This document shows, piece after piece, positions 3,182 through 47,109 of a stretch of 56,494 nucleotides of DNA (positions within the stretch are counted from its first letter, which is position 1; the number at the start of each line of letters is the position of its first letter). The notes under the pieces are model-generated. The model was not told the origin of the DNA. It saw nothing but the letters and a program-made list of their open reading frames with translations, and did no database searches. Source of the DNA: Candidatus Nomurabacteria bacterium (GTDB lineage: Bacteria; Patescibacteriota; Minisyncoccia; Phycocordibacterales; UBA9973); assembly GCA_943356675.1 (NCBI GenBank), contig CALRFQ010000003.1:1-56494 (forward strand), given 5' to 3'. Position numbers and translations under genes: made by a program.

Positions 3182-3370
3182 ATGCAGAAAGAAATAAGTA
3201 AAAAAGAGAAAACACAATTATACTTACTCTTAATAATATTAATTATTATTGGTGGTTTTGTACTTTACAGAAAGCCAAATACCACAAACATCAAACCAAA
3301 AATAAGTACCGCTCCAAGAGTGAAAGGCCCTACAAATCCACCTCCTTCAAATAATGAAATTAGACGATAA
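3182..3370 (+). CDS. Small single-TM protein with Pro-rich tail
   Basis: ATG follows the previous TAA by 1 nt; hydrophobic stretch LYLLLIILIIIGGFVLY. Confidence 0.6.
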   Translation: MQKEISKKEKTQLYLLLIILIIIGGFVLYRKPNTTNIKPKISTAPRVKGPTNPPPSNNEIRR

Positions 3371-5540
3371 GCTTGAGTCACAATTTAGAATAAATGAAAT
3401 ACAAAGGAATGCACTTTCGCATATCGGTGTTTTTACTGTGCGTGACCTCTTGTATTACTTCCCCGCACGTTATGGCGACATGTCAGAAATTCGTAGTATA
3501 AATACGCTCAAAGATGGAGAAGATGTAACAATCCTTGGAGTGCTTACCGATCTTAAAACTAAAAAAAGTTTCAAGAGTAAGATCCCAATGGGTGAAGCGA
3601 AAATTACAGACCTATCCGGAAGCATTCATATCGTGTGGTTCCATCAGCCTTACCTTGCAAAGATGATGAAGGAAGGAAGCACAGTAAGAGTCACAGGAAA
3701 AGTGAAAGAAAATAGCACCTATGGCCTCACTCTCACAAACCCAGAAATGACACCTGAGGACGTGCTACCTATAGATCTCCACGATTCACTTTTCTCTGGC
3801 AATGAAAAGATCTCTCAGTATGGCTACCCTATTTATCGAGAAACAAAAGGTATAACATCCAAATGGATTTACCATACAATTAAAAAGATTCTTATAGATA
3901 GTGAAATCAAAAATACTTTAGAATACATTCCGAGTGAAATATTAGAAAAATATAAATTACCCTCTCTTCTCACCGCTCTCATCTGGATTCATATGCCAGA
4001 GAAAAAGGAGCACGCAGAGATTGCTCGCAAGCGCTTCGCTTTCGAAGAAGTATTCTTCATACAGCTTGCACGCTGGCAAGAAAGGAAAGCCTATGAATCA
4101 CTCTTTTCTTACCGGCTCACAGTGCCAGAGAAGGACGTGGCAGATTTTATTTCCCGTTTCCCTTTTACACCTACAAAATCACAAACAAATACAATTGAAA
4201 CAATTCTTAAAGACGTGGAAATGGATAAGCCAATGTCGCGACTTGTGGAGGGAGATGTGGGTAGCGGAAAAACTTTCATCGCTGCTACTGTTTCTTATGC
4301 AGTTATAAAGAACAGGCCCTTTGATAAAAAGTTAAATAAAATTCAAACCTTTGGATCACTCCAAGTGGCGTATATGGCGCCGACAGAAGTGCTTGCCACG
4401 CAACTGTTTGAAAACTTCATCACATACTTCAAACACACAGGAATATCCATCGGGCTTATGACTGGCTCTGGATGCAGGAAGTTCCCAAGCAAAGTTGCAA
4501 GTAGCACTGAGGACTGGACCAACATTTCTAAATCTCAATTACTAAAATGGGTTAAGGGTGGAGAAATTCCTATCCTTATCGGTACGCACGCACTCATCTC
4601 CAAGTCCGTCGATTTCAAAGATTTAGGATTAGTCATCATCGATGAACAGCACCGCTTCGGTACAAATCAGAGAATGAAACTCGCGAAGAAGGATGGCCAT
4701 GCTCCGCACTACCTCTCAATGACGGCTACCCCTATTCCTCGTACGCTTGCTCTCACTATCTATGGTGACCTCGATTTATCCATAATTGATGAAATGCCAG
4801 CCGGTAGAAAGAAAGTAATCACAAATATAATTCCTGAGAATAAAAGACAGGTTGCTTATGATGAAATAAAGAAAGAGCTCGAGAATGGCCGCCAGCTTTA
4901 TGTGATTTGCCCACGCATCGATGAACCAGATCCTGATCAAGAGAAAGCAATCCTTGCGAAGTCTGTACTTTCTGAAGCAAAAAGATTACAGAAAGATATT
5001 TTCCCGAAATACAGAATCGGTGTAATGCATAGCAAAATGACGAAACAAAAAAAGGAAGAAGTGATGGAAGAATTTGTGAATCATGAAATAGATATTCTTG
5101 TCTCCACCTCTGTAATTGAAGTGGGTGTCTCTGTCGCAAATGCCACAATGATAATCATCGAGGGAGCTGAACGCTTCGGTCTTGCTCAGCTTCACCAGCT
5201 TCGCGGGCGCGTGATCCGCTCAAATCACCAATCATATTGCTACCTTTTCGCTGATGCCAAAAGTGAGAAGACTATTGAAAGATTGAAGGCTCTTACTAAA
5301 GCTGCAAATGGATTCGAACTTGCCGAGCTCGACCTCGCACAGCGTGGTGCCGGGCTCCTAGGTGGAGACAAACAGTGGGGCGTGACGGACCTAGGCATGG
5401 AAGCCATCAAGAACATAAAACTCGTGGAAGCCGCTCGCACAGAAGCTCACACACTTGTGGATGAAGACACTACCCTTTCCAAATACCCACTCCTATCTCA
5501 AACCCTCGCTTCCAAAAATTTCACTCTCCACTTCGAATAA
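3354..5540 (+). CDS. recG: ATP-dependent DNA helicase RecG
   Basis: Wedge/OB domain, GDVGSGKT, APTEVLA, DEQHRFG, TATPIPR, QLHQLRGRV, TRG motif. Confidence 0.96.
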   Translation: MKLDDKLESQFRINEIQRNALSHIGVFTVRDLLYYFPARYGDMSEIRSINTLKDGEDVTILGVLTDLKTKKSFKSKIPMGEAKITDLSGSIHIVWFHQPYLAKMMKEGSTVRVTGKVKENSTYGLTLTNPEMTPEDVLPIDLHDSLFSGNEKISQYGYPIYRETKGITSKWIYHTIKKILIDSEIKNTLEYIPSEILEKYKLPSLLTALIWIHMPEKKEHAEIARKRFAFEEVFFIQLARWQERKAYESLFSYRLTVPEKDVADFISRFPFTPTKSQTNTIETILKDVEMDKPMSRLVEGDVGSGKTFIAATVSYAVIKNRPFDKKLNKIQTFGSLQVAYMAPTEVLATQLFENFITYFKHTGISIGLMTGSGCRKFPSKVASSTEDWTNISKSQLLKWVKGGEIPILIGTHALISKSVDFKDLGLVIIDEQHRFGTNQRMKLAKKDGHAPHYLSMTATPIPRTLALTIYGDLDLSIIDEMPAGRKKVITNIIPENKRQVAYDEIKKELENGRQLYVICPRIDEPDPDQEKAILAKSVLSEAKRLQKDIFPKYRIGVMHSKMTKQKKEEVMEEFVNHEIDILVSTSVIEVGVSVANATMIIIEGAERFGLAQLHQLRGRVIRSNHQSYCYLFADAKSEKTIERLKALTKAANGFELAELDLAQRGAGLLGGDKQWGVTDLGMEAIKNIKLVEAARTEAHTLVDEDTTLSKYPLLSQTLASKNFTLHFE

Positions 5541-5657
5541 ACTTATCGAAGGCGTAACTTTTCTGGAGGCTTACGGAGGCGGACGCGCCGAGTACGAGAC
5601 GCTTTTTCAGTAGAAAAAGACGGCGTACTCCAAGTAAAGTTATGCCGAGATAAGTTT
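5539..5657 (+). repeat. Structured element family A, copy 1 (at the recG stop)
   Basis: Terminal stem AAACTTATC/GATAAGTTT plus GGCGTAACTTT/AAAGTTATGCC; GGCG-GACG-CGCC; CG-CTTTTTC-AGTA-GAAAAAG-A-CG. Confidence 0.85.
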
Positions 5658-5694
5658 CAATAATTATTTGACGACTATGTTATAATATAAATAT

Positions 5695-10286: not shown

Positions 10287-11651
10287 TTATTTTACTAATT
10301 TATTTGCAATACCTATATAATTCTCTGGAGTAAACTTTTTGAGTTCAGTTTTAATTGCGGGTGTTACTTTGAGTCCATCGATAAATCTCGCGAAGTCTGC
10401 CATAGTCACCTTCTTCCCACGAGTGAGATCCTTCAGAGCTTCATATGGCACAGGATATTTCTCTCGCCTTAGGACTGTCTGGATAGCTTCTGCCACAACC
10501 TCTGGGTGATTCTCTAAATCCTCTAGTATTTTAATTTTATTCACACTTATCTTACTGAGTCCTTTACTAAGCATTACATATGCAAGTAGTGAGTGGCCGA
10601 ATGCTGTGCCGAATGCACGCTCCACTGTGGAGTCTGAAAGGTCGCGCTGAAGGCGTGAGACTGGGAGCTTTCGAGCGAAGAATTCAAACATAGAATTTGC
10701 GAGGCCGATATTGCCTTCACTGTTTTCAAAATCAATCGGATTAATCTTGTGCGGCATTGTGGATGAGCCTACCTCCCCTGCTTTTGGCTTTTGAGAAATG
10801 TAACCATCAGAAATGTATCTCCACATATCCTGATCGAAATCAAGAAGGACCATATTTGCTCGGCGAATAATATCAAAAAGTTCTATATATGTATCATGTG
10901 ATTCAATCTGTGTAGTAATCAAATTTGCTTCGAGCTTCACTCCTGCAATTTTACTGAGGTGCGCCACAAACTTCTCTGTGAACTTCGGCCAGTTGGCTTT
11001 CGGGTACGCTGCCACGAATGCATTATAGTTACCTGTCGCACCATTTAACTTCATCATCACTTTCTGATTCTTAAGCTGTTTGATCTGGCGACTTAGGCGA
11101 TATGCAAATACAGCCATCTCCTTCCCTAGTGTAGTAGGTGAAGCGCTCTGGCCGTGTGTGCGAGAAAGCATAGGGAGAGATTTATTCTCTCTTGCGAACT
11201 TCTCGATATTTTTAGAAATGTTTTCCAATTCTGGAAGTAATACATTTTTCACCGCAAGCGAAAGCATGAGAGCGTATGAAGAATTATTTGTATCTTCAGA
11301 AGTGAGACCAAAGTGCACCCACTCAAGAGTATCCTTCAAACTAGTTTTTTCTAAATTTTCTTTTATGAAATACTCCATAGCCTTCACATCATGGTTTGTA
11401 GTCGCCTCGAATTTCTTGATCTTCGCATATGATGCATCACTAAAATTCTCATAGAGTGAGCGGATAGCTTTCACTTCGTTTTGAGTTAAATTCCTAAGGC
11501 TAGTAATCTTAGACTCTGATAGGAAAATAAGGAATTCGCACTCAACCATCGTGCGGTACTGCATAAGAGCATACTCGCTCATATACGGCGCAAGCGCCTT
11601 CGTCCTCTCTTCATATCTTCCATCTAGTGGGTTTATAGCTTTACTGTTCAT
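10287..11651 (-). CDS. purB: Adenylosuccinate lyase
   Basis: NPLDGRY, TNHDVKA, HFGLTSED, RTHGQ, GSSTMPHKINPIDFEN, RDLSDS. Confidence 0.96.
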   Translation of the reverse strand: MNSKAINPLDGRYEERTKALAPYMSEYALMQYRTMVECEFLIFLSESKITSLRNLTQNEVKAIRSLYENFSDASYAKIKKFEATTNHDVKAMEYFIKENLEKTSLKDTLEWVHFGLTSEDTNNSSYALMLSLAVKNVLLPELENISKNIEKFARENKSLPMLSRTHGQSASPTTLGKEMAVFAYRLSRQIKQLKNQKVMMKLNGATGNYNAFVAAYPKANWPKFTEKFVAHLSKIAGVKLEANLITTQIESHDTYIELFDIIRRANMVLLDFDQDMWRYISDGYISQKPKAGEVGSSTMPHKINPIDFENSEGNIGLANSMFEFFARKLPVSRLQRDLSDSTVERAFGTAFGHSLLAYVMLSKGLSKISVNKIKILEDLENHPEVVAEAIQTVLRREKYPVPYEALKDLTRGKKVTMADFARFIDGLKVTPAIKTELKKFTPENYIGIANKLVK

Positions 11652-11652
11652 A

Positions 11653-12609
11653 TTATTTCTTTAAATTATTTTCGATTCGTTCTACGATTCCTTGAGAGAA
11701 ATCATGATCAAAAGCTTTACCAGTAATAGTTTCATAAATCTCTATATAACGGCGAGATAGTTCGGCTACGAGTTCTGGAGGAGCTTCTGGCAAAACTTTA
11801 TCATTGTATGGATCACAATTTTCTTTGAACCAAAGTCGTAGAAATTCCTTGTCGAAATATTCTGGCTCAAGATCTTGGTCGAAACGCTCTTGGTATGTGT
11901 TTGCCTTCCAGTAGCGAGAAGAGTCTGGAGTGTGTATTTCATCGATAAGAGTTAATTTTCCATTTTCGTCTAGTCCAAATTCATACTTAGTATCGACAAG
12001 AATCAAACCTTTCGTGTATGCAATTTCCTGACCACGCTTAAATAATTCTATCGCTACCTTCTCCACTTCTTCAATCAATTCTTTTTTCATAAGACCTTCT
12101 GCCACAATTTCTTGCGGAGATAAAGTACGGTCATGTTCTTCAAACTTCGTCGATGGAGTAAATACTGGTTCTGGCAATTGCTGATTCTTGTGCATTCCTT
12201 CAGGTAGAACGAAGTTTCCGAAATCTCTTTTACCATCCTTGTAGTGTGTCCAAAGTGATGTGGAAGTTACACCAGTAATGTATCCACGCACAATTGCCTC
12301 AATAGGAAGAGGCTTGCAAACCTTCGCCACTAGAACAGCTGGGTCTGGAATACTTACTACGTGATTCTGTATGATGTCCTTTGTATTTTCAAACCAAAAA
12401 GCACTAATGAGATTCAAAACTTCACCCTTGAAAGGCACAAAGGCAATAATACGATCAAATGAAGAATGCCTGTCTGTGGAAACTAAAGTAATTTTATCTG
12501 GTGATACATATATATCTCGGACCTTCCCTACTTTCTTTTCACCCAAACCTTTCAAGTTTGTCTCCTTCAGCACGTCGCCAATATGTTCTTTGATTAAATC
12601 AATATTCAT
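11653..12609 (-). CDS. purC: SAICAR synthetase (long type)
   Basis: GKVRDIY, TDRHSSFD, EAIVRGY, FTPSTK, LVDTKYEFG, DEIHTPDSSR, DKEFLR. Confidence 0.95.
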   Translation of the reverse strand: MNIDLIKEHIGDVLKETNLKGLGEKKVGKVRDIYVSPDKITLVSTDRHSSFDRIIAFVPFKGEVLNLISAFWFENTKDIIQNHVVSIPDPAVLVAKVCKPLPIEAIVRGYITGVTSTSLWTHYKDGKRDFGNFVLPEGMHKNQQLPEPVFTPSTKFEEHDRTLSPQEIVAEGLMKKELIEEVEKVAIELFKRGQEIAYTKGLILVDTKYEFGLDENGKLTLIDEIHTPDSSRYWKANTYQERFDQDLEPEYFDKEFLRLWFKENCDPYNDKVLPEAPPELVAELSRRYIEIYETITGKAFDHDFSQGIVERIENNLKK

Positions 12610-12728
12610 CCCGTTAGAGATAGGAAATCTTTAGATTTCCGTACCTTATTATTATTGTTAATATATCTTCTATAATACCATTTTTAAACTTCTCACGTAA
12701 GACATAACTAAAAATCTCTAACGGGAGA
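12610..12728. mobile_element. Element family B, copy 1: inverted-repeat-bounded insertion at the purC start codon
   Basis: CCCGTTAGAGAT (12610-12621) / ATCTCTAACGGG (12714-12725); CAT on both sides (12607-9, 12729-31); near-identical ends at 26634-26755. Confidence 0.75.
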
Positions 12729-12732
12729 CATA

Positions 12733-13773
12733 TTATTTTAAAATTACTTTTTTATTACCATTAATAATTTGACCAATTTCATAAATACTAAAATTTGGAT
12801 AATCTTTTAGTATAGTTTCGATTTTTTCTTTTTCACTCTTCGGCACGATAAGTATAAGTCCAATTCCCATATTGAAGACTCTATACATTTGCTCTGTAGG
12901 CACATCCCCCACTTTTTGCATATAAGGAAAGATCGGAAGCATTGGCCAAGTATTTAAATTTATTTCAGCATCGAGATCTTTCGGAAGCACACGTGGAATA
13001 TTCTCTATAAATCCTCCGCCAGTAATATGCGCAATTCCGCGGATATCAATTCCTTTTGAAAGCATATCAAGGACCGGCACAGAATAATTCACATGTACTT
13101 TAAGTAGAGCTTCCCCTACTGTCATTCCTAGCTCAGGTACATTTGTATTCACATCGAGCTTGCCTATATCAAAAAGTATTTTACGAGCAAGCGAGAATCC
13201 ATTTGTATGTAATCCTGAAGATGGAAAGCCGAGGAGAATATCTCCTTCTTCGATTTTCTCTCCTGTAATAATTCCAGATTTTTCTACTACTCCTGTAATT
13301 ACTCCAGCAATATCATGCTCACCTTGTGCATATACTCCTGGCATTTCTGCAGTTTCTCCACCGATGAGTGACACACCGTTTTCTTTACAAGCTTTCGCCA
13401 TACCGCCCACCATTTGAGCCATTACTATAGGGTCGAGCTTATCGTGCGCTACGTAGTCGAGAAATGTGAGAGACTTGGCTCCCATAGCAAGGAGGTCATC
13501 ACAGCAGTGATTCACAATGTCTTGCCCTACTGTGTCGTACTTATTCATCATTCTTGCTACAGAGAGCTTCGTGCCCACACCATCGATACTCTGCACGAGC
13601 ACAGGGTTCTTATAGTTTTTAATTATTTCAGATAAATCATAAAGCCCACCGAAAGAGCCAATGCCGGTAAGCACAGCTTTCGTATGAGTCCCTGCCACAT
13701 CACCTTTCATAAGGCGCACCGCCTCATTCCCCGCATCAATGTTTACTCCTGACTCACTGTATAGATCACTCAT
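12733..13773 (-). CDS. purM: AIR synthetase
   Basis: YSESGVNID, GSFGG, DGVGTK, GGETAEMPG, SSGLHTNGFS, HITGGG, FNMGIG. Confidence 0.96.
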   Translation of the reverse strand: MSDLYSESGVNIDAGNEAVRLMKGDVAGTHTKAVLTGIGSFGGLYDLSEIIKNYKNPVLVQSIDGVGTKLSVARMMNKYDTVGQDIVNHCCDDLLAMGAKSLTFLDYVAHDKLDPIVMAQMVGGMAKACKENGVSLIGGETAEMPGVYAQGEHDIAGVITGVVEKSGIITGEKIEEGDILLGFPSSGLHTNGFSLARKILFDIGKLDVNTNVPELGMTVGEALLKVHVNYSVPVLDMLSKGIDIRGIAHITGGGFIENIPRVLPKDLDAEINLNTWPMLPIFPYMQKVGDVPTEQMYRVFNMGIGLILIVPKSEKEKIETILKDYPNFSIYEIGQIINGNKKVILK

Positions 13774-17728: not shown

Positions 17729-17734
17729 AATATT

Positions 17735-17860
17735 AAATGATTTGTAATAAAATAAATCTTGCGAATACCCTCTTCGCAGGCTGACGAGCCGAGAAAAGCA
17801 ATTTTTCAGTAGAAAAATATGCGTGGGTTGAGCAAGGTTGTATTTTATGTAAAATCATTT
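17735..17860 (+). repeat. Structured element family A, copy 2 (purQ stop / purF start)
   Basis: AAATGATTT/AAATCATTT, TAAAATA/TATTTTA and AATCTTGC/GCAAGGTT stems; GGCT-GACG-AGCC; GCA-ATTTTTC-AGTA-GAAAAAT-A-TGC. Confidence 0.85.
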
Positions 17861-21664: not shown

Positions 21665-23077
21665 ATGATACAACCAGAACTTAAGGTTACAGGATATAGA
21701 GGGGTTTGGGGTGAGAGCCTAAATGAAGATATTTCTATAAGCTTCGGAGCTGCCTTTGCCTCATTTACAAAAGTAGACTCGGGTAAAGAAAATCCCACAA
21801 TTCTCATAGGGCGTGACGGACGCGAAAGTGGAGAGTCTATCGCAAATGCAATTATCCCAGAAATAGAAAAGCTCGGTGTAAATGTAATTTACGGCGATGT
21901 ACTCCCTACCCCTACCATAATGCTTTCTGTAAAAGAGAAAGGTTACGATGGAGCGATAATCATTACCGCTAGCCACAACCCCATAAAATACAATGGTCTC
22001 AAATTCGTCACGAAAGGTGCACGAATGACAAATGAAAGTGAAGTAGAAAAAATAAAAAGTTTTCTAACTAGCGAGCGAGAAAATGTTGTTCCAGGAACCC
22101 TTTCGCAGCGCGACGGCGCGAGAAGAGAAATTTTCCAGCAGGAAAATATTCGTGGTGACGGGAATAACATTTCGAGCGAGCTGATTAACATACATATTAA
22201 TAAAATCCTAGAAAATATTGATGTAGAAAAAATCCGTGCACGGAAATTCAAAATAGCTGTAGATATGATAAATGCATCGGCATGTGTGATAGACCCATAT
22301 TTATTTGAAAAGCTTGGCGTGGAGTATGTAGCGTTGAATGACACACCAAACGGAAAGTTTGCACACGAACCAGAACCAATAGAGCAAAACCTGAAAGATA
22401 TTTGCGCCTTAATGAAAGAAAATAAGTGTGACGTGGGCTTCGCTCACGATCCTGATGCAGACCGCCTCGTAATCATAGACGAGAATGGTGACTACATTTC
22501 TGAAGAATACACTCTCGGCTTCGGTATTGAAAATGTCATGTCAAAGAATCCAAATAGAAATGTAGTGGTGAATATGTCCACTTCGCAAATGTCTGCAGAT
22601 ATTACTGAGAAGTACGGAGGTACTTGCTACCGTACCAAAGTAGGAGAAGCGAATGTTTTCGCTGGTATCGATGAACACGATGCAATCATAGGTGGTGAAG
22701 GAGGCAGCGGATGCATATACCCTACTATAAACAATTGCCGTGACGGATTCGTAAGTATGACTCTCGCACTTGAACTCTTAGCTACGAGAAATTCTACAGT
22801 GAGCGAAATGGTAAATATATTGCCAAAATACTTTATGAAAAAGGATAAGTGGTCTGTGGAAGGAAAAAACACTCTAGAACTATATGAAAAGCTAAAAACT
22901 CATTTCCCAAATGCAAAATATAATATGCTCGATGGCATCCGCCTCGATTTTCCAGACCAATCTTGGATACACATGCGCCCATCAAATACTGAACCAATCA
23001 TCCGAATGTTCGGTGAAGCAAAAACTTCTGAACGCTTAGAAGAACTTTACGCAGAAGCTAAAAAAATAATCTCCTAA
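21665..23077 (+). CDS. Alpha-D-phosphohexomutase (PGM/PMM family) carrying an in-frame repeat insert
   Basis: TASHNP (phospho-Ser), DPDADR (metal), GGEGSG, RPSNTEP. Confidence 0.93.
   Translation: MIQPELKVTGYRGVWGESLNEDISISFGAAFASFTKVDSGKENPTILIGRDGRESGESIANAIIPEIEKLGVNVIYGDVLPTPTIMLSVKEKGYDGAIIITASHNPIKYNGLKFVTKGARMTNESEVEKIKSFLTSERENVVPGTLSQRDGARREIFQQENIRGDGNNISSELINIHINKILENIDVEKIRARKFKIAVDMINASACVIDPYLFEKLGVEYVALNDTPNGKFAHEPEPIEQNLKDICALMKENKCDVGFAHDPDADRLVIIDENGDYISEEYTLGFGIENVMSKNPNRNVVVNMSTSQMSADITEKYGGTCYRTKVGEANVFAGIDEHDAIIGGEGGSGCIYPTINNCRDGFVSMTLALELLATRNSTVSEMVNILPKYFMKKDKWSVEGKNTLELYEKLKTHFPNAKYNMLDGIRLDFPDQSWIHMRPSNTEPIIRMFGEAKTSERLEELYAEAKKIIS
22066..22186 (+). repeat. Structured element family A, copy 3 (in frame inside pgm)
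   Basis: 74-bp core 22090-22163 is 71/74 identical to 23548-23621; GCGC-GACG-GCGC; GAA-ATTTTCC-AGCA-GGAAAAT-A-TTC. Confidence 0.92.
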
Positions 23078-23916
23078 ATTTTAAAGTCTCCGATTTTTGT
23101 TCGCTTGATATGGAGAGCGAGGGCAGGCACTCCTAGAAGGTTGCCTAAGTCATTTGCTATGCTTCTTACATAAGTGCCACTGCCACAATTTATCGTGAGG
23201 GTAACTACTTGAAAGTCTTCCTCCCTAGGTCCAACCTCGGGAGATAAAACCTCTTCCCATTTCGCGAGAATTTCTTCTTGGCGGAAATCGCCTTGCACGG
23301 AACCTATAGAACTTTTAATATACTTATGTAATTTTTCTTTCGTGATTGTTTCCACTTTCTTTATTTCAATACTTTCCACATGCACCTTGTGCTTTGGGAT
23401 TTCTATATCACTTAGTCTTCCCTCTCTAGCCCACTGAAAAAGTGGTTTGCTATTCACAGTGCGAGAAGAATACGGCGGATACGCTTGCTCAAAGTCACCA
23501 GTAAATTTATTTTGTAGAATTTCAGAGAGCGAATGAAGGCACATTGATCCAGGAACCCTTTCGCAGAGCGTCGGCTCGAGAAGAGAAATTTTCCAGCAGG
23601 AAAATATTCGTGGTGACGGGAGTAATGTGTCGAGTGAGCTCTCTTGATTTACCAACCCCATCACATCATATGTATCAGTAGCGAAACCAAAGAGAACTTT
23701 CACTTCGTATTCTTTAGGTAGCATCGTGTATTCATCCTTTTTCATACATTCATCACCGGCAAGAATAAGCAAAAGCCCTTCGGCGAGCGGATCAAGGCGC
23801 CCAGCATATGTAAGGGGTAAAAATTGGTATTCTGACTGCTCCTCCCTCAGCCTACTTAGGGCAGAAAGCGGGGTTTCTCCCATGTTTTTGTAAAAAGGTA
23901 TAATTTGTAGGGGCAT
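23074..23916 (-). CDS. truB: tRNA pseudouridine(55) synthase carrying an in-frame repeat insert
   Basis: YAGRLDPLAEG, KEY, TDTYD, PPYSS, CGSGTYVRS, RTKIG. Confidence 0.92.
   Translation of the reverse strand: MPLQIIPFYKNMGETPLSALSRLREEQSEYQFLPLTYAGRLDPLAEGLLLILAGDECMKKDEYTMLPKEYEVKVLFGFATDTYDVMGLVNQESSLDTLLPSPRIFSCWKISLLEPTLCERVPGSMCLHSLSEILQNKFTGDFEQAYPPYSSRTVNSKPLFQWAREGRLSDIEIPKHKVHVESIEIKKVETITKEKLHKYIKSSIGSVQGDFRQEEILAKWEEVLSPEVGPREEDFQVVTLTINCGSGTYVRSIANDLGNLLGVPALALHIKRTKIGDFKI
23524..23644 (+). repeat. Structured element family A, copy 4 (in frame, antisense, inside truB)
   Basis: AGAGAGC/GCTCTCT terminal stem; GAGC-GTCG-GCTC; same AGCA hairpin as copy 3. Confidence 0.92.
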
Positions 23917-25256: not shown

Positions 25257-26633
25257 TTATTTACAATCAAGCATTATCACATCCCCTGCCATTGGGCTCT
25301 CGGTCTTCACACCGAGGTTGTCTGTGAGCTTTTGAGCAAGGAAAAGCGCTGCCTTCGGCTCACCCATAACTGTAAATACTTTCTTCACATGCTTCGCCAT
25401 TGGCTCTACGAACTCCACTAGGTGATCAGAATCCTTATGACCTGAATAACCACTAATCTTCTCTATATGAGCACGGACTGGGATATCTTCACCTTGAATA
25501 CGGAGCTTCTTACTACCTTCCTCTATCTGCCTGCCTAGAGTACCTACAGCTTGGTAGCCGATAAGTAACAAGGTGTCATTTTCATTTGGAAGATAATTCT
25601 TCTCGTGGTGGATTATGCGCCCACCATTACTCATGCCAGATCCCGCCATTATTATCTTTGGATTTGGAACATTTAAAATAGCTTTCGATTCATCAGTCTC
25701 AAGAGTAAGTTTTAGACCTTTAAAATTAAATATGTCATCCCCACTCGCTATTATCTTCTTGGCAGTTTCATTGAAATACTTTTCATTCTGCTTGTAAACA
25801 CGATCGAGCTTAATCGCAAGCGGAGAATCTAAGAATACTGGCATGACTGGCACAATCTTGTTCTCTATCATTTCATTCATTTCGAAAAGGAGCTCTTGAG
25901 TACGCTCGAGAGAGAATACTGGGATCATAAGTGTGCCACCGCGGACATAGTTCTCATTTATGATTTCTGCTAATCTCTTCTTTCTTATTTCACGATCTTC
26001 ATGGTTGCGATCCCCATATACTGATTCCATTATAAGATAATCTGCATCGTCTACCACTTCAGTATCGCAAAGCAGTGGTGATGGAGAATTACCAAGGTCA
26101 CCCGTAAATACAATCTTCTTGCCGTTGTATAAAATCTCAAGCATTCCTGAACCAAGAATGTGCCCAGAATCTTTAAAAGAAAATTGGAAACCGTGATCCA
26201 CATTTATAGATTCGTGGTATTCCACCCCTTCCCATATATTCATAGCAGTTTTAATGTTCTCTGCTGTATATATCTCGGCAAGGTGATGCACTATATCTTT
26301 CTGAAGTAAATGAGCAGTGTCCTCGAGCATTAACTGTGCAATGTCTTTCGTAGGTATTGTAGAAATAATTCTACCCTTAAACCCATCTGCAATTATCTTG
26401 GGAATGCGGCCTATGTGATCCACATGTGAATGTGTAATGAAAAGGATATCAATCTCAGCTGGATTATATGTAAATGGAGCCCAGTTTAGCTCGTCTGCAA
26501 TGCTCTCACCTTGCACTAGACCGCAATCTATCAAAAACTTTTTTCCATTACCTTCTAATAAGAAATTGGCGCCAGTAACTGTGCCTGCGCCGTTTGCAAA
26601 TGTGAGCTTAAGCTGTGTATCTTTAATATCCAT
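25257..26633 (-). CDS. MBL-fold beta-CASP ribonuclease
   Basis: DCG, THSHVDHIGR, SGHILGS, FTGDLG, MESVYG, GSGMSNGGR, YSGH. Confidence 0.92.
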   Translation of the reverse strand: MDIKDTQLKLTFANGAGTVTGANFLLEGNGKKFLIDCGLVQGESIADELNWAPFTYNPAEIDILFITHSHVDHIGRIPKIIADGFKGRIISTIPTKDIAQLMLEDTAHLLQKDIVHHLAEIYTAENIKTAMNIWEGVEYHESINVDHGFQFSFKDSGHILGSGMLEILYNGKKIVFTGDLGNSPSPLLCDTEVVDDADYLIMESVYGDRNHEDREIRKKRLAEIINENYVRGGTLMIPVFSLERTQELLFEMNEMIENKIVPVMPVFLDSPLAIKLDRVYKQNEKYFNETAKKIIASGDDIFNFKGLKLTLETDESKAILNVPNPKIIMAGSGMSNGGRIIHHEKNYLPNENDTLLLIGYQAVGTLGRQIEEGSKKLRIQGEDIPVRAHIEKISGYSGHKDSDHLVEFVEPMAKHVKKVFTVMGEPKAALFLAQKLTDNLGVKTESPMAGDVIMLDCK

Positions 26634-26755
26634 CCCGTTTAGAGATAGGAAGTCCTAAGACTTCCGTACCTTATTAATTATTGTTAATATTTCTATCTAA
26701 GTTTTGATTTTTATACTGCCCGATAAATACATAACTGAAAATCTCTAACGGGAGC
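26634..26755. mobile_element. Element family B, copy 2: insertion at the beta-CASP gene start codon
   Basis: CCCGTTTAGAGAT...ATCTCTAACGGG, CAT at 26631-3 and 26756-8; hairpin GGAAGTC-CTAA-GACTTCC. Confidence 0.75.
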
Positions 26756-26781
26756 CATACTTATATTATAGTATAAAAATG

Positions 26782-31191: not shown

Positions 31192-33915
31192 TTAACTAGT
31201 GTATTTTGCCATTATTTCTGCCTCGATTTCATCACGATCACGGCCGTACTTGAGGTATGAAAGCTCTTTTAAGCTATCTACTATCTGCGTATTTCCGGCA
31301 GGTGGTGCAAATGTAGATATGTTGAATGGCTTCGTCGGCTGACCGCCTATGAGCATACTAATGTAGGCATTTCTATTATCTATCTTCATTATGTCTTTCG
31401 CTGTGAATACTGGTTTAAATTTACTCTCGAGGAATTCTGCATCTTCAGCCCCAACACGGAAGACTGCCAATGAACCCACGTTTCCAAAAACTGCATTTTT
31501 GATTTTATCTTCAAGTTGAGAAATATACTGGTGAGCTACAGTAAGAGAAAGGCGGTACTTGCGAGCTTCAGAAAGAATTGATTCAATAGAGTCTGTTGTA
31601 ATATTTTGAAACTCATCTATATACAGGAAGAAGTCTTCCATTTTTTGACCATACATATCCACACGAGAAAGTGCTGCCATCTGAATCTTACCCACAAGAA
31701 GCAAACCAATTAAATTCGCATTTATATCTCCCAATCGTCCTTTTGATAAATTAACAAGAAGAATTTTTTTATTGTCCATGATGTCACGGAAATTAAATAC
31801 AGACTTTTCTTGAAGGACCACTGGGCGCATAATGTCGTTTGAAATAAAGTTGTCGAACTTTGATGAAATGTATGGCACGAAGTTTGCTAGTGATTGATCC
31901 CCAGTCGTCTGCTCTGCTCCTACCCAAAACTGTTTAATAATTGGATTTTTACATTTAGCAAGTTTCATATCTCGGAAAGCTTTGTCGCCCAAGACTCGAG
32001 TGATTTCAAGCAGAGTACAACCAGATTCCGGATCCTCCATCACAAGGAAAGCACTGTTTCGGAAATATTGCTCAAACATAGCTCCTCCACCAGTTTTCAT
32101 ATCAAAAAGCTTGTTGAAAATATTCATTAATTCATTCACTACGAATGTCTTTTGTTCAGGATACTTCGGGTCAAACTCAAGCATGTTGAGACCCATAGGA
32201 CGTGGAGTATAAGCTGGGTCAAAGTAGATCACATCATCTATGCGCTCTTTCGGCACATAAGAAAGAATGTCTTGAATATCAGTCCCGTGTGGGTCTATAT
32301 AGCACACGCCGTGCCCGGCTGCGATATCCTGCGCGATCATATTTTTCATTATTGTAGTCTTACCTGTACCAGTCTGACCGATCACATAGAAGTGACGCAT
32401 ACGATCCTCAGGAGCAAAGAGAATGTCTGTCTCCCGGCCACGATAACTATTGTGACCAATTTTAATGCCCTCATTCCCCATTTCCATTGGAGCAGGTGCA
32501 ATACCAGCCTTTGCTTGCTTGAGCTGTGGAGAATCTTCAATACCATATGGGAAGTGAAAAATAGTTGCAAGCTCTTTTAAATTTAGAGGCATTTTCAAAG
32601 TATCACTGAATGTACGATAAGAATAGTCGTGAAGTAATTCACGGAGCTCTGGACCTTTCGGATGATGAAAATCAAAACCGTTTCGATCCGCTTCCGTGAA
32701 CTGGTTGAATGATGACTCAATATCATTAAGAATTTGCTTTGCTCTGTCTTCTGTCTCAGCTGATGCAACCACACGAATATTTGTGGCCATTATAGTGCTC
32801 TTTAATTTCTCTGTGATAGCTTCCACAGCTCTGTCATTCACCTTCTTCTCCTCTTTTTGCTTACTGGCTCCAAAGATTAATTCTTTTGCCATTTTTCCAA
32901 ATTCTTTTCCAATCTGGCGGCCCACAGATGAAGCAGTGCGCACAGACATTCCCTCTTTCACATCATTTAGGACTATGCGAAATTCTTTTACAATATCATC
33001 ATCCTCAGGACAAATCGAGAACTGAATAGAGGCACCTTCACCTTCTTTTTTTAATTTAGAAAAGACATTGAGAATAATGTTTAGTGGATCATGCTCGATG
33101 GTATCGTACATCTTTATCGGATACACATCATGGTGCGCGAGTGAAGCATAGCTCGCTGCTGTGTGCCCACCGTCGGTAAATACATTATAATCATCTGGCA
33201 CTTCATTTATCTTTGCATGAGCGTGCACACCAAGGATCTGCTTCTCAAAAAGGTCAGCTTTATTGGAAGGCACTGCAGTGTAGAATATAAAATGATCACT
33301 ATTATTAGAAATCGCAACCTCTAGAGTGAAGTGACTTCGATTATAATTCTGGCGATTCTCTCCCACTGAATGCATACCCGCATAAAACTGCTCCATTGTA
33401 GATAGTAATTCTTTAAGACCCTTTTTATCATCGTCCGTTGGTTCTGGAAGAGTAATCTCGAAAAGCTTCATGTCGAGCGACTTCCAAAGTGGCGTGCCCT
33501 CCTTAAGCCCTGGCACAGTGTGCGTGGAGACTAGGTACTGCACGAGGAAACGATGGAAGTCATCGTCTAAGTGAGGATTCTCCATCTTCGCAATTACAGA
33601 AAGCGCAGTGGACACTCCTTTCTCAAGAAGCACCCCTAGTAACTCTTCCATCTTTGCATCATGATTCTCGGGCTTCAAATGTAGCACTAGCTGCTGCACT
33701 TCTTTCTCAGGCATAGCCACCGATGGATGCATTACTTCAGTATGAGGAGTTTGGCGATAAGTACTAAGTGCTTCGTGTGCGAGCTGCTCTTTCGTAACTT
33801 CAGTGCCTTGGTGCGCCATCGCTTGCTCACGCTCTGCAATATGCGCACGCAAAAATTGCAGCTCTTCTTCAGGAGTTTTAAATTTCGGAATATTATTCAA
33901 AGAAAAATTTTCCAT
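31192..33915 (-). CDS. VirD4/TraM-like (HerA/DUF87) P-loop ATPase, 907 aa
   Basis: RMRHFYVIGQTGTGKT, YIDPHG, YIDEF, SEARKY, AHQYISQL, NVGS. Confidence 0.85.
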   Translation of the reverse strand: MENFSLNNIPKFKTPEEELQFLRAHIAEREQAMAHQGTEVTKEQLAHEALSTYRQTPHTEVMHPSVAMPEKEVQQLVLHLKPENHDAKMEELLGVLLEKGVSTALSVIAKMENPHLDDDFHRFLVQYLVSTHTVPGLKEGTPLWKSLDMKLFEITLPEPTDDDKKGLKELLSTMEQFYAGMHSVGENRQNYNRSHFTLEVAISNNSDHFIFYTAVPSNKADLFEKQILGVHAHAKINEVPDDYNVFTDGGHTAASYASLAHHDVYPIKMYDTIEHDPLNIILNVFSKLKKEGEGASIQFSICPEDDDIVKEFRIVLNDVKEGMSVRTASSVGRQIGKEFGKMAKELIFGASKQKEEKKVNDRAVEAITEKLKSTIMATNIRVVASAETEDRAKQILNDIESSFNQFTEADRNGFDFHHPKGPELRELLHDYSYRTFSDTLKMPLNLKELATIFHFPYGIEDSPQLKQAKAGIAPAPMEMGNEGIKIGHNSYRGRETDILFAPEDRMRHFYVIGQTGTGKTTIMKNMIAQDIAAGHGVCYIDPHGTDIQDILSYVPKERIDDVIYFDPAYTPRPMGLNMLEFDPKYPEQKTFVVNELMNIFNKLFDMKTGGGAMFEQYFRNSAFLVMEDPESGCTLLEITRVLGDKAFRDMKLAKCKNPIIKQFWVGAEQTTGDQSLANFVPYISSKFDNFISNDIMRPVVLQEKSVFNFRDIMDNKKILLVNLSKGRLGDINANLIGLLLVGKIQMAALSRVDMYGQKMEDFFLYIDEFQNITTDSIESILSEARKYRLSLTVAHQYISQLEDKIKNAVFGNVGSLAVFRVGAEDAEFLESKFKPVFTAKDIMKIDNRNAYISMLIGGQPTKPFNISTFAPPAGNTQIVDSLKELSYLKYGRDRDEIEAEIMAKYTS

Positions 33916-33940: not shown

Positions 33941-34100
33941 AGCGATAGTACAAAAACATATAGGAAAAGCCTTGCGCAGGAGCTTAGAAAATAAATGAGG
34001 CTATGTTAATTGCCGATTATTATTTTCTTGAGTGACGAGCAGAGCAAAAATCCAGCAGGATTTTATGTGTGCTTTTATCATATGTTTTTGTACTAAAGCT
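33941..34100 (+). repeat. Structured element family A, copy 5 (expanded, at the map stop)
   Basis: Perfect 16-bp IR 33946-33961/34080-34095; GCA-AAAATCC-AGCA-GGATTTT-A-TGT; TGACGAGC. Confidence 0.75.
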
Positions 34101-46620: not shown

Positions 46621-47109
46621 TCACGCCTCACCCCAAACCCCTCTCCAAATCTTAAAGGATTTAGAGAGGGGCGAAATTCGAAACACTGTGGTTATATAGT
46701 TATGCGTTCTTTAATAGTCTGCAATACCTTGCCTATACTTTTCATGATTTCATCATTTTTTAAACGCAGTACTTTTATTTTGTTAGCTGCTAAAAATTCA
46801 GTTCTCATTTGATCATACTTTTTTCCTTCTTCTTTAAAGTGATAGGCACCGTCGAGTTCAATCGCAAGTTTAAAACGAGGGCAATAGAAATCTAAAACAA
46901 AAGGCCCAATAGGGTGCTGACGCCTGAATTTCTCGCCAAGTTTATTATTTCGGAGTTCTTCCCAGAGTAATTTCTCAACTTCAGTTTCCACTTGCCGTAA
47001 ATAGCGAGCTTTTTCAATTTTTTCATGCTTCAACATTTGCAAGGAATTTTACACTTCTCCCCTCTCCTATTTTCGTAGAAAATGGAGAGGGGCTGGGGGT
47101 GAGGCGTGA
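46621..47109. mobile_element. DUF559 cassette bounded by hairpin inverted repeats
   Basis: TCACGCCTCACCCC-AAA-CCCCTCTCCA (from 46621) versus TGGAGAGGGG-CT-GGGGGTGAGGCGTGA (to 47109); each end has its own CCCCTCTC/GAGAGGGG hairpin. Confidence 0.7.
46692..47042 (-). CDS. DUF559 (Vsr-like PD-(D/E)xK) endonuclease
   Basis: ARYLR...EKLLW, FRRQHPIG, DFYC, IELDGAYH, RTEFL. Confidence 0.9.
   Translation of the reverse strand: MQMLKHEKIEKARYLRQVETEVEKLLWEELRNNKLGEKFRRQHPIGPFVLDFYCPRFKLAIELDGAYHFKEEGKKYDQMRTEFLAANKIKVLRLKNDEIMKSIGKVLQTIKERITI

Follow-up and report, generated by a model that had tools for sequence, protein, structure and literature searches.

A dispersed palindromic repeat read in frame, in opposite orientations, within two housekeeping enzymes of a Candidatus Nomurabacteria bacterium

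The stretch of DNA analysed here, called the window throughout, is the 56,494-nt contig CALRFQ010000003.1 of a Candidatus Nomurabacteria bacterium (GCA_943356675.1), a member of the Candidate Phyla Radiation (CPR, Patescibacteria); all coordinates refer to it. Two of its housekeeping genes, pgm and truB, lie on opposite strands and each contains one copy of a palindromic element of about 121 nt (Table 1). As a first-pass annotation of this DNA had proposed, the element is in frame in both genes and in opposite orientations, sense in pgm and antisense in truB. The peptides quoted there were recovered by translation without change, the open reading frame (ORF) of pgm reading ENVVPGTLSQRDGARREIFQQENIRGDGNNISSEL and that of truB reading SSLDTLLPSPRIFSCWKISLLEPTLCERVPGSMCLHSL. 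For the product of the gene called pgm, the most fitting name is archaeal-type GlmM/phosphohexomutase (TIGR03990, 451 bits). Its Pfam domain PGM_PMM_I covers residues 7-139 and its domain II residues 177-275; in TruB, the PF01509 match is interrupted at residues 93/135. We consider it probable that the two copies belong to a small palindromic family, about 80-150 nt long, non-autonomous and transposase-less, which is dispersed in Patescibacteria chromosomes in the manner of the Rickettsia palindromic elements (RPEs) and is new for the CPR.

Table 1. Coordinates of the element copies, their host genes and other features of the window (R1, covariance model of the element; I and D, inverted and direct repeats)
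Feature	Positions	Strand	Remarks
pgm	21665-23077	+	GlmM-type phosphohexomutase, 470 aa; element at residues ~134-174, between PGM domains I and II
truB	23074-23916	-	tRNA pseudouridine-55 synthase, 280 aa (269 aa from a later start); element at residues ~91-131 of the 280-aa form
Copy 1	22066-22186	+	in frame and sense in pgm; core 22090-22163; R1 79 bits at 22087-22166
P2 hairpin, copy 1	22108-22119	+	GCGC-GACG-GCGC; holds the compensatory C-G/A-T difference from copy 2
P3 hairpin core, copy 1	22128-22150	+	AAATTTTCC-AGCA-GGAAAAT...; string behind the database scans
Copy 2	23524-23644	+	antisense to truB, read in frame; R1 75.5 bits at 23545-23624
Copy 3	17729-17854	+	fills the purF-purQ gap, antisense to both, gives the purQ stop codon; R1 63 bits, E = 1e-13, at 17758-17837
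Copy 4	5539-5662	+	intergenic, directly 3' of recG (3354-5540, +); R1 50 bits, E = 1.6e-10, at 5557-5638
Copy 5	33950-34095	+	diverged, expanded P2 arm, flanked by a DUF87/TraG-like gene and by map; inverted repeat I2 forms its outer stem; R1 22 bits, E = 0.0015, at 33989-34083
DUF87/TraG-like gene	31192-33915	-	907-aa protein
purC	11653-12609	-	SAICAR synthetase
purC leader	12610-12745	-	repeat D5/D7
RNase J-like gene	25257-26633	-	beta-CASP/RNase J-like
RNase J-like gene leader	26634-26770	-	repeat D5/D7
I1-flanked segment	46619-47111		57-nt inverted repeats, 75% complementary
DUF559-like ORF	46692-47042	-	116 aa, endonuclease-like; PF04480, E = 1e-31
Diverged direct repeat, first pair	28116-28319/35311-35514		70-75% identity
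Diverged direct repeat, second pair	29088-29158/36298-36368		70-75% identity

On the plus strand, segments 22086-22182 and 23544-23640 form direct repeat D2, with a length of 97 nt and 91% identity. Within this repeat, 71 of the 74 core positions are identical (22090-22163 compared with 23548-23621), exactly as first reported, while over the two full elements, whose length of about 121 nt was also correct, identity amounts to 98/121. A 39-mer taken from the core has two matches in the window, compared with 0 expected from 100 shuffles. The three core differences are located at positions 22109 (C/A), 22113 (A/T) and 22118 (G/T). Two of them replace a C-G pair with an A-T pair in the 4-bp stem of hairpin P2, which reads GAGC-GTCG-GCTC in copy 2, so that their earlier description as a compensatory change holds; the third is in the loop. 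Paired changes likewise distinguish the outer stems of copies 1 and 2. A template/variable pair of a diversity-generating retroelement was considered and rejected, since the differences are not confined to template adenines and no reverse transcriptase is found among the neighbouring genes.

An identical PGM protein is encoded on seven contigs from independent assemblies. In the three of these contigs from which DNA was retrieved, the copies in pgm, in truB and between purF and purQ are the same base for base, and this recurrence in independently assembled contigs excludes misassembly. An assembly artefact, a chance similarity or a linker homologous at the protein level is an a priori possibility in metagenomic contigs and has nothing further in its favour; its probability is negligible. 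Besides the agreement among assemblies, hundreds of related copies exist elsewhere, zero matches are expected by chance, and similarity at the protein level is ruled out because the two enzymes read opposite strands of the element.

Both host ORFs are intact, and their catalytic motifs, TASHNP, DPDADR, GEGGSG and RPSNTEP in PGM and GRLDP in TruB, are kept as invariant columns in orthologue alignments, in agreement with the first description. It had also been predicted that homologues would be shorter at the sites of insertion, and this is the case: the corresponding segment comprises 13 aa in Thermotoga maritima TruB, compared with 42 in the query, and about 16 aa in the PGM of Pyrococcus horikoshii, compared with about 35, so that solved homologues are shorter at both sites. 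Segment lengths are bimodal among 240 PGM and TruB orthologues, with modes at ~29-35 and ~45-60 aa in PGM and at ~19-29 and ~40-55 aa in TruB. The long form is present in most of them, and remnants can be recognized in some of the short ones. In AlphaFold models of the two proteins (mean predicted local distance difference test score, pLDDT, of 88 in both), the inserts are the only stretches modelled with low confidence, and the structural check suggested with the proposal thus came out in its favour. Values below 50 are found in PGM only at residues 137-166, and values of 53-69 at residues 81-120 of the 269-aa form of TruB. Judged from these models, the insert apparently forms a disordered or floppy surface loop, in a position compatible with the fold of the host.

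The 23-nt string of the P3 core was found in at least 119 stretches of reference genomes, almost all of them metagenome-assembled genomes of Paceibacteria/Patescibacteria, with many matches in several genomes; no match was detected in 2.9 million viral contigs. A covariance model named R1, built from 54 copies that share the architecture seen in the window, added three copies to the initial two, bringing the window to five, or about one per 10 kb. Three of the five are antisense to their genes. All five (5557-34083) are on the plus strand, although the surrounding genes are on both strands; this common orientation is probably due to chance, as other loci with multiple copies are co-oriented in about 11 cases and mixed in 10.

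About 63% of the copies found with the string are intergenic or located in short open stretches. The host range was taken from DNA loci (designated here by L numbers), and the proteins in which a copy is placed in mid-sequence are PGM (window, L086, L099), TruB, RecG, LigA and a ComF-like protein. The insert separates the two helicase lobes in RecG (L013, L092), the OB fold from the zinc finger in LigA (L076), and the zinc ribbon from the PRT domain in the ComF-like protein (L039). The RecG encoded in the window itself has no insert. A profile of the 44-residue peptide retrieved only three ORFs of 41-64 aa from a set of 5.8 billion proteins, being too short for significance. The first-pass annotation had envisaged a peptide-donating element of the CPR that is tolerated either way, and the dispersed copies, the five unrelated hosts and the occurrence of both orientations at the same protein site, described below, support this.

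Variant architectures include copies with an extra 5' hairpin, a longer P3, an expanded P2 and tandem arrays. Tandem or close arrays of the element or of its P2/P3 modules (L031, L101, L049, L073, L054, L060 and L087) suggest a modular organization comparable to that of BOX elements. Variants that have either one more 5' hairpin or a longer P3 also occur directly next to tRNA genes and in the same orientation (L068 at 3616-3780; L112, L114 and L117; L010 and L057; L051 and L119). Their positions are conserved across genomes, just 3' of tRNA-Arg(tct) and just 5' of tRNA-Gln(ctg) and tRNA-Asn(gtt). No Rfam 15 family matches the element, either at gathering scores in the whole window or at E <= 10 in 21950-23750. 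No earlier description was found in the literature on CPR, Patescibacteria and Parcubacteria, in which subscription journals were thinly covered, so earlier work is possible.

Each unit of 121 nt is predicted to fold into a three-way junction composed of a long outer stem, P1, a short helix with the GC-rich P2, and the A/U-rich P3, with GACG/GTCG in the loop of P2 and AGCA in that of P3. Fold energies are -44.9 kcal/mol (z = -4.65) for copy 1, -47.6 kcal/mol (z = -4.80) for copy 2 and -51.4 kcal/mol (z = -7.0) for copy 4; z-scores of all folded copies range from -3.8 to -7. The diverged copy 5 shares the same fold, and changes in its P3 are compensated. The core is conserved throughout the family. 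P1, in turn, pairs well within each copy and differs between loci, even in one genome, as in the copies of bin-2248.

Covariation supports this fold. Double-sided changes number 16-24 at the P2 pairs of the 54 aligned copies. In 16 more diverse copies, mostly from the orthologous PGM site, 13 of 15 pairs are changed on both sides, as are 9 of 10 in P3, and 91% of the cells pair compared with 66% after shuffling and 33-54% with slid partners, the alignment having been fitted to the model. Furthermore, in 111 of 122 copies the better fold is that of the sense strand, with a mean advantage over the complement of 7.3 kcal/mol. When the outer stems, which are outside the search pattern, are taken alone, G.T oppositions outnumber A.C oppositions by 388 to 303 (p = 0.0014). 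This asymmetry suggests that a single-stranded form of one strand matters in propagation. It holds with RNA and with DNA parameters, and since both sets favour the plus strand, RNA and single-stranded DNA (ssDNA) intermediates are not discriminated.

We have also addressed the orientation and reading frame of the element with regard to its hosts. Peptides at the PGM and TruB sites of orthologues correspond to readings of the element in its sense frame (EIFQQENIR), in another sense frame (RKFSAENF) and in antisense (PRIFSCWKISLL, NFLLKI). At the TruB site, DNA of L121 and L123 carries the sense orientation and L120 a sense copy truncated at its 5' end; the window, L122 and L124 carry antisense copies. 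At the PGM site, a model match occurs in the exact position in 13 of 22 closer metagenomic orthologues, 9 of them sense and 4 antisense; no model match was obtained at this site in distant PGMs, nor in a clade with PGMs about 34 aa shorter.

The frame remains open through the element, irrespective of orientation and frame, in all 11 independent PGM loci with a match, which were found by tblastn and not by gene calling. All 240 retrieved orthologues likewise keep one open frame through the site. The family is poor in stop codons: 3.65 of its 6 frames are open, when shuffles of matched composition have 1.49 and segments taken at random from the window 2.0. An open frame is mirrored on the other strand by palindromy, so either orientation can be tolerated. 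The consistently open frames at the 11 loci suggest that the element is retained in the mRNA and translated together with the host gene. Excision in the manner of an intron, by which the mRNA would lose the insert or the ribosome would skip it to yield a protein devoid of it, is highly improbable. Intervening sequences are well known in rRNA genes of CPR genomes, and the outer stem would bring both ends of the element together as such a process needs; an open frame would be needless in a removed segment, no Rfam intron or ribozyme family matches, and most copies are intergenic. An intein was likewise considered and rejected on its defining features.

Relative to flanking transcription, 24 copies are oriented in the same and 25 in the opposite direction, and no relation to GC skew was detected (60 and 63 copies). 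Independence from flanking genes and from skew makes a cis-acting mRNA element unlikely and favours DNA that inserts either way. These results bear on the possibility that the conserved core functions as a structured nucleic acid, for instance a small RNA, a site of processing or protein binding, or a signal for translational pausing at domain boundaries; selection would keep it in these positions, and the peptide would be a by-product. Strong covariation and better folding of the sense strand would be expected of such a molecule, conservation of the cores exceeds that of the genes around them, the presence of the element at the PGM and TruB sites is deep and widespread, in-ORF copies are placed at domain boundaries, and the tRNA-adjacent variants are conserved in position and co-oriented. 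We nevertheless regard it as unlikely, given orientation that is random with respect to local transcription, the antisense position of most window copies, and the acceptance of either orientation at the same protein site. In addition, the element is present or absent, and in one case truncated, among close relatives, many orthologues do not have it, no Rfam family matches even at E <= 10, and covariation can be mimicked without selection by palindrome correction and gene conversion.

Gain and movement of copies can be followed in a relative with PGM 89% identical to that of the window (L124). In this relative, purF and purQ are 1 nt apart, which represents an empty site, and the window has a palindromic insert of 126 nt at this position. 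Copy 4 is 82% identical, arms included, to an L124 copy located in a different spacer, and arms shared between different loci indicate that whole units move. Two further differences between these genomes were noted: L124 has an extra FkbO/Hyg5-like gene (11437-12528) between its pgm and truB, two genes whose 3' ends overlap in the window, and the purine cluster of L124 includes purK and a small ORF that are absent from the window strain.

Comparison of the in-gene copies revealed a mosaic of core and arms. The core in pgm of the window is 96-97% identical to truB-type cores of the window and of L124, and only 80% identical to its own L124 orthologue. At the same time, the 3' arm of this copy is 93% identical to the L124 orthologue, and pgm DNA outside the element 85%. 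The simplest reading of these values is that the pgm copy was most likely converted by the directly oriented truB copy at a distance of 1.4 kb; gene conversion within the genome would explain why the pgm and truB cores are 96% identical while their arms are unlike. Other lineages show different pairings of pgm and truB cores.

Between relatives that differ in orientation, core and arms are flipped as one. In L122, a sense 5' arm is left over beside a complete antisense copy, and both features point to replacement or re-insertion and not to clean inversion. This makes it very unlikely that the element is an intragenic inverton, in which recombination between the arms would flip the core within a population and generate two protein isoforms. 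Long inverted arms around a core open in most frames of both strands would suit such a switch, as would the two orientations found at the same site among relatives, and intragenic invertons have already been described (bioRxiv 10.1101/2023.03.11.532203, cited from the part of the preprint that was available). The copies in the three independent contigs compared are identical and in the same orientation, and no invertase is encoded in the annotated neighbourhood.

Taken together, these observations are best explained by an element of the RPE type, with two refinements of the original proposal. The near-identity of the two window copies, which could be taken for two fresh insertions, is not evidence of them and is better explained by gene conversion; and both sites are old and widely occupied, so that the element is to be seen as a long-resident one that turns over, and not as a recent invader. 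Copies that land or persist in loops and inter-domain linkers would survive owing to a stop-poor sequence and to palindromy mirroring open frames. Those within genes would be transcribed and translated with their host, adding a disordered surface loop of ~20-35 residues. Gain or loss of copies occurs between close relatives, and entire units move; the cores within a genome would be homogenized by gene conversion. Spread is envisaged as selfish, through a single-stranded intermediate (RNA or ssDNA) that some enzyme may mobilize.

Several points weigh against this explanation. The filled and empty purF-purQ sites, a single pair in an A/T-rich context, do not show a clear target-site duplication, and no transposase or other mobilizing gene was found in the annotated neighbourhood of 21 kb, a genome-wide survey not having been made. 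The arms, which are constant in a classical MITE (miniature inverted-repeat transposable element), are the least conserved part, and cores are up to 99% identical where flanking genes are 85% identical, a difference that could reflect selected function of the core. Occupancy of the sites in PGM and TruB extends over a clade whose PGMs share only about 55-65% identity, and this fits ancient residence or function as well as it fits repeated insertion. Some variant copies are located in conserved positions co-oriented with tRNA genes. Finally, translation of the insert is deduced from open frames.

A tentative alternative, less probable than dispersal of an RPE-like family, envisages a mobile or semi-domesticated element of a kind not described before, defined by its three-way-junction core and not by its termini, which is spread and homogenized through a strand-specific single-stranded intermediate by an enzyme of the CPR. 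It would at the same time serve as a nearly permanent, orientation-switchable linker in PGM, TruB, RecG, LigA and ComF, possibly with a function of its own, for example as a binding or processing site or as a pause signal at domain boundaries.

Apart from the element, the window contains several other repeats and structured segments. A 5' leader of about 130 nt is common to purC and the RNase J-like gene. In both leaders, a long-range stem of 13-14 bp (CUCCCGUUAGAGAU / AUCUCUAACGGGAUG) includes the start codon, and a hairpin shows compensatory changes (z = -4.2 and -3.2). No Rfam match to the leader was obtained at E <= 10, and it is a candidate cis-regulatory RNA. The inverted repeats I1 surround the DUF559-like ORF, and the whole may represent a small mobile cassette. 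Two pairs of diverged direct repeats, both spaced by about 7.2 kb, suggest a paralogous gene pair or a duplicated segment. The 907-aa protein encoded next to the diverged copy 5 has weak signatures of HerA/DUF87, TraG/TraD and TrwB-type coupling proteins and is conserved in relatives.

Genomes of the CPR/Patescibacteria are among the smallest and most streamlined known. Despite this streamlining, the window carries a structured repeat about every 10 kb, also inside essential enzymes. A broad connection between the reduction of genomes and their tolerance of coding palindromes is suggested. The element accounts for some of the insertions and differences in length that lacked an explanation in CPR proteins, and calls for caution in annotation and structure prediction. 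It also offers a natural experiment on how proteins take up 20-35 random-looking residues at domain boundaries, whichever direction is read. The conserved core, variable arms and strand-asymmetric folding together point to an uncharacterized mechanism of mobilization or maintenance.

The element was compared with known repeat systems of similar appearance. TIGR-Tas arrays, which occur in CPR, consist of tandem units processed to 36 nt, with dual spacers, box C/D motifs and an adjoining Tas gene with a Nop domain (PMC12045711); this assignment was rejected, as the window copies are single, about 120 nt long and located within or between housekeeping genes. PARCELs are similar in being coding sequences with dyad symmetry that are readable as protein and spread within and between genomes. 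Their amphipathic motif of 25 residues is arrayed in tandem, in proteins that have no known function and are often membrane-targeted, whereas the CPR element is found as single insertions in conserved enzymes and has a branched nucleic-acid structure not described for PARCELs, so this class was also set aside.

Repetitive extragenic palindromic (REP) sequences and bacterial interspersed mosaic elements (BIMEs), associated with RAYTs, the IS200/IS605-like Y1 transposases, are likewise palindromic, abundant and strand-asymmetric according to the available part of PMC3733652. The shared asymmetry is suggestive of a single-stranded intermediate also for the CPR element. According to the same part of that source, REPs are 20-40 bp long and extragenic, and carry a GTAG or CGTC tetranucleotide tag. 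The CPR element is 3-5 times longer (~120 nt), branched and intragenic in five hosts, with no tag at the base of its stem, and no RAYT was seen; membership in this class was rejected.

With MITEs and other structured repeats of bacteria (ERIC, BOX, Correia/NEMIS and QMITEs of Coxiella; PMC10969869, and PMC5896051 as far as its text was available), the CPR element shares short length, non-autonomy, multiple copies, formation of hairpins and occasional in-frame intragenic position. It is small, transposase-less and multi-copy, with presence and absence between relatives, all of which are features of MITEs, and its tandem and extra-hairpin variants (L031, L049 and L073) recall the modular BOX elements. 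Classical MITEs have conserved terminal inverted repeats, a target-site duplication and a cognate insertion sequence (IS). In contrast, the arms of the CPR element pair within a copy but vary between copies, so that conserved termini are lacking; no cognate IS was found in the annotated 21 kb, whole genomes not having been searched for it.

The closest resemblance is to RPEs, repeats of about 150 bp which form several families and often have an in-frame position within housekeeping genes (Ogata et al. 2000, 2002, via PMC10969869). In both cases, small palindromic repeats (~100-150 bp) with several subfamilies occupy a reduced genome, in intergenic positions as well as in frame in unrelated housekeeping genes, where a peptide is encoded and insertion is compatible with the host fold, and no transposase is associated. 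The two differ in their hosts, Patescibacteria and Alphaproteobacteria, respectively, with no evidence of sequence relatedness. Unlike RPEs, the CPR element conserves an internal three-way-junction core and has locus-specific arms, is found across a deep clade at the same protein site, in several frames and with either orientation, and shows clear homogenization of cores within a genome. On this comparison, the CPR element may be regarded as a functional counterpart of RPEs, one that works like an RPE and is not assigned to that group.

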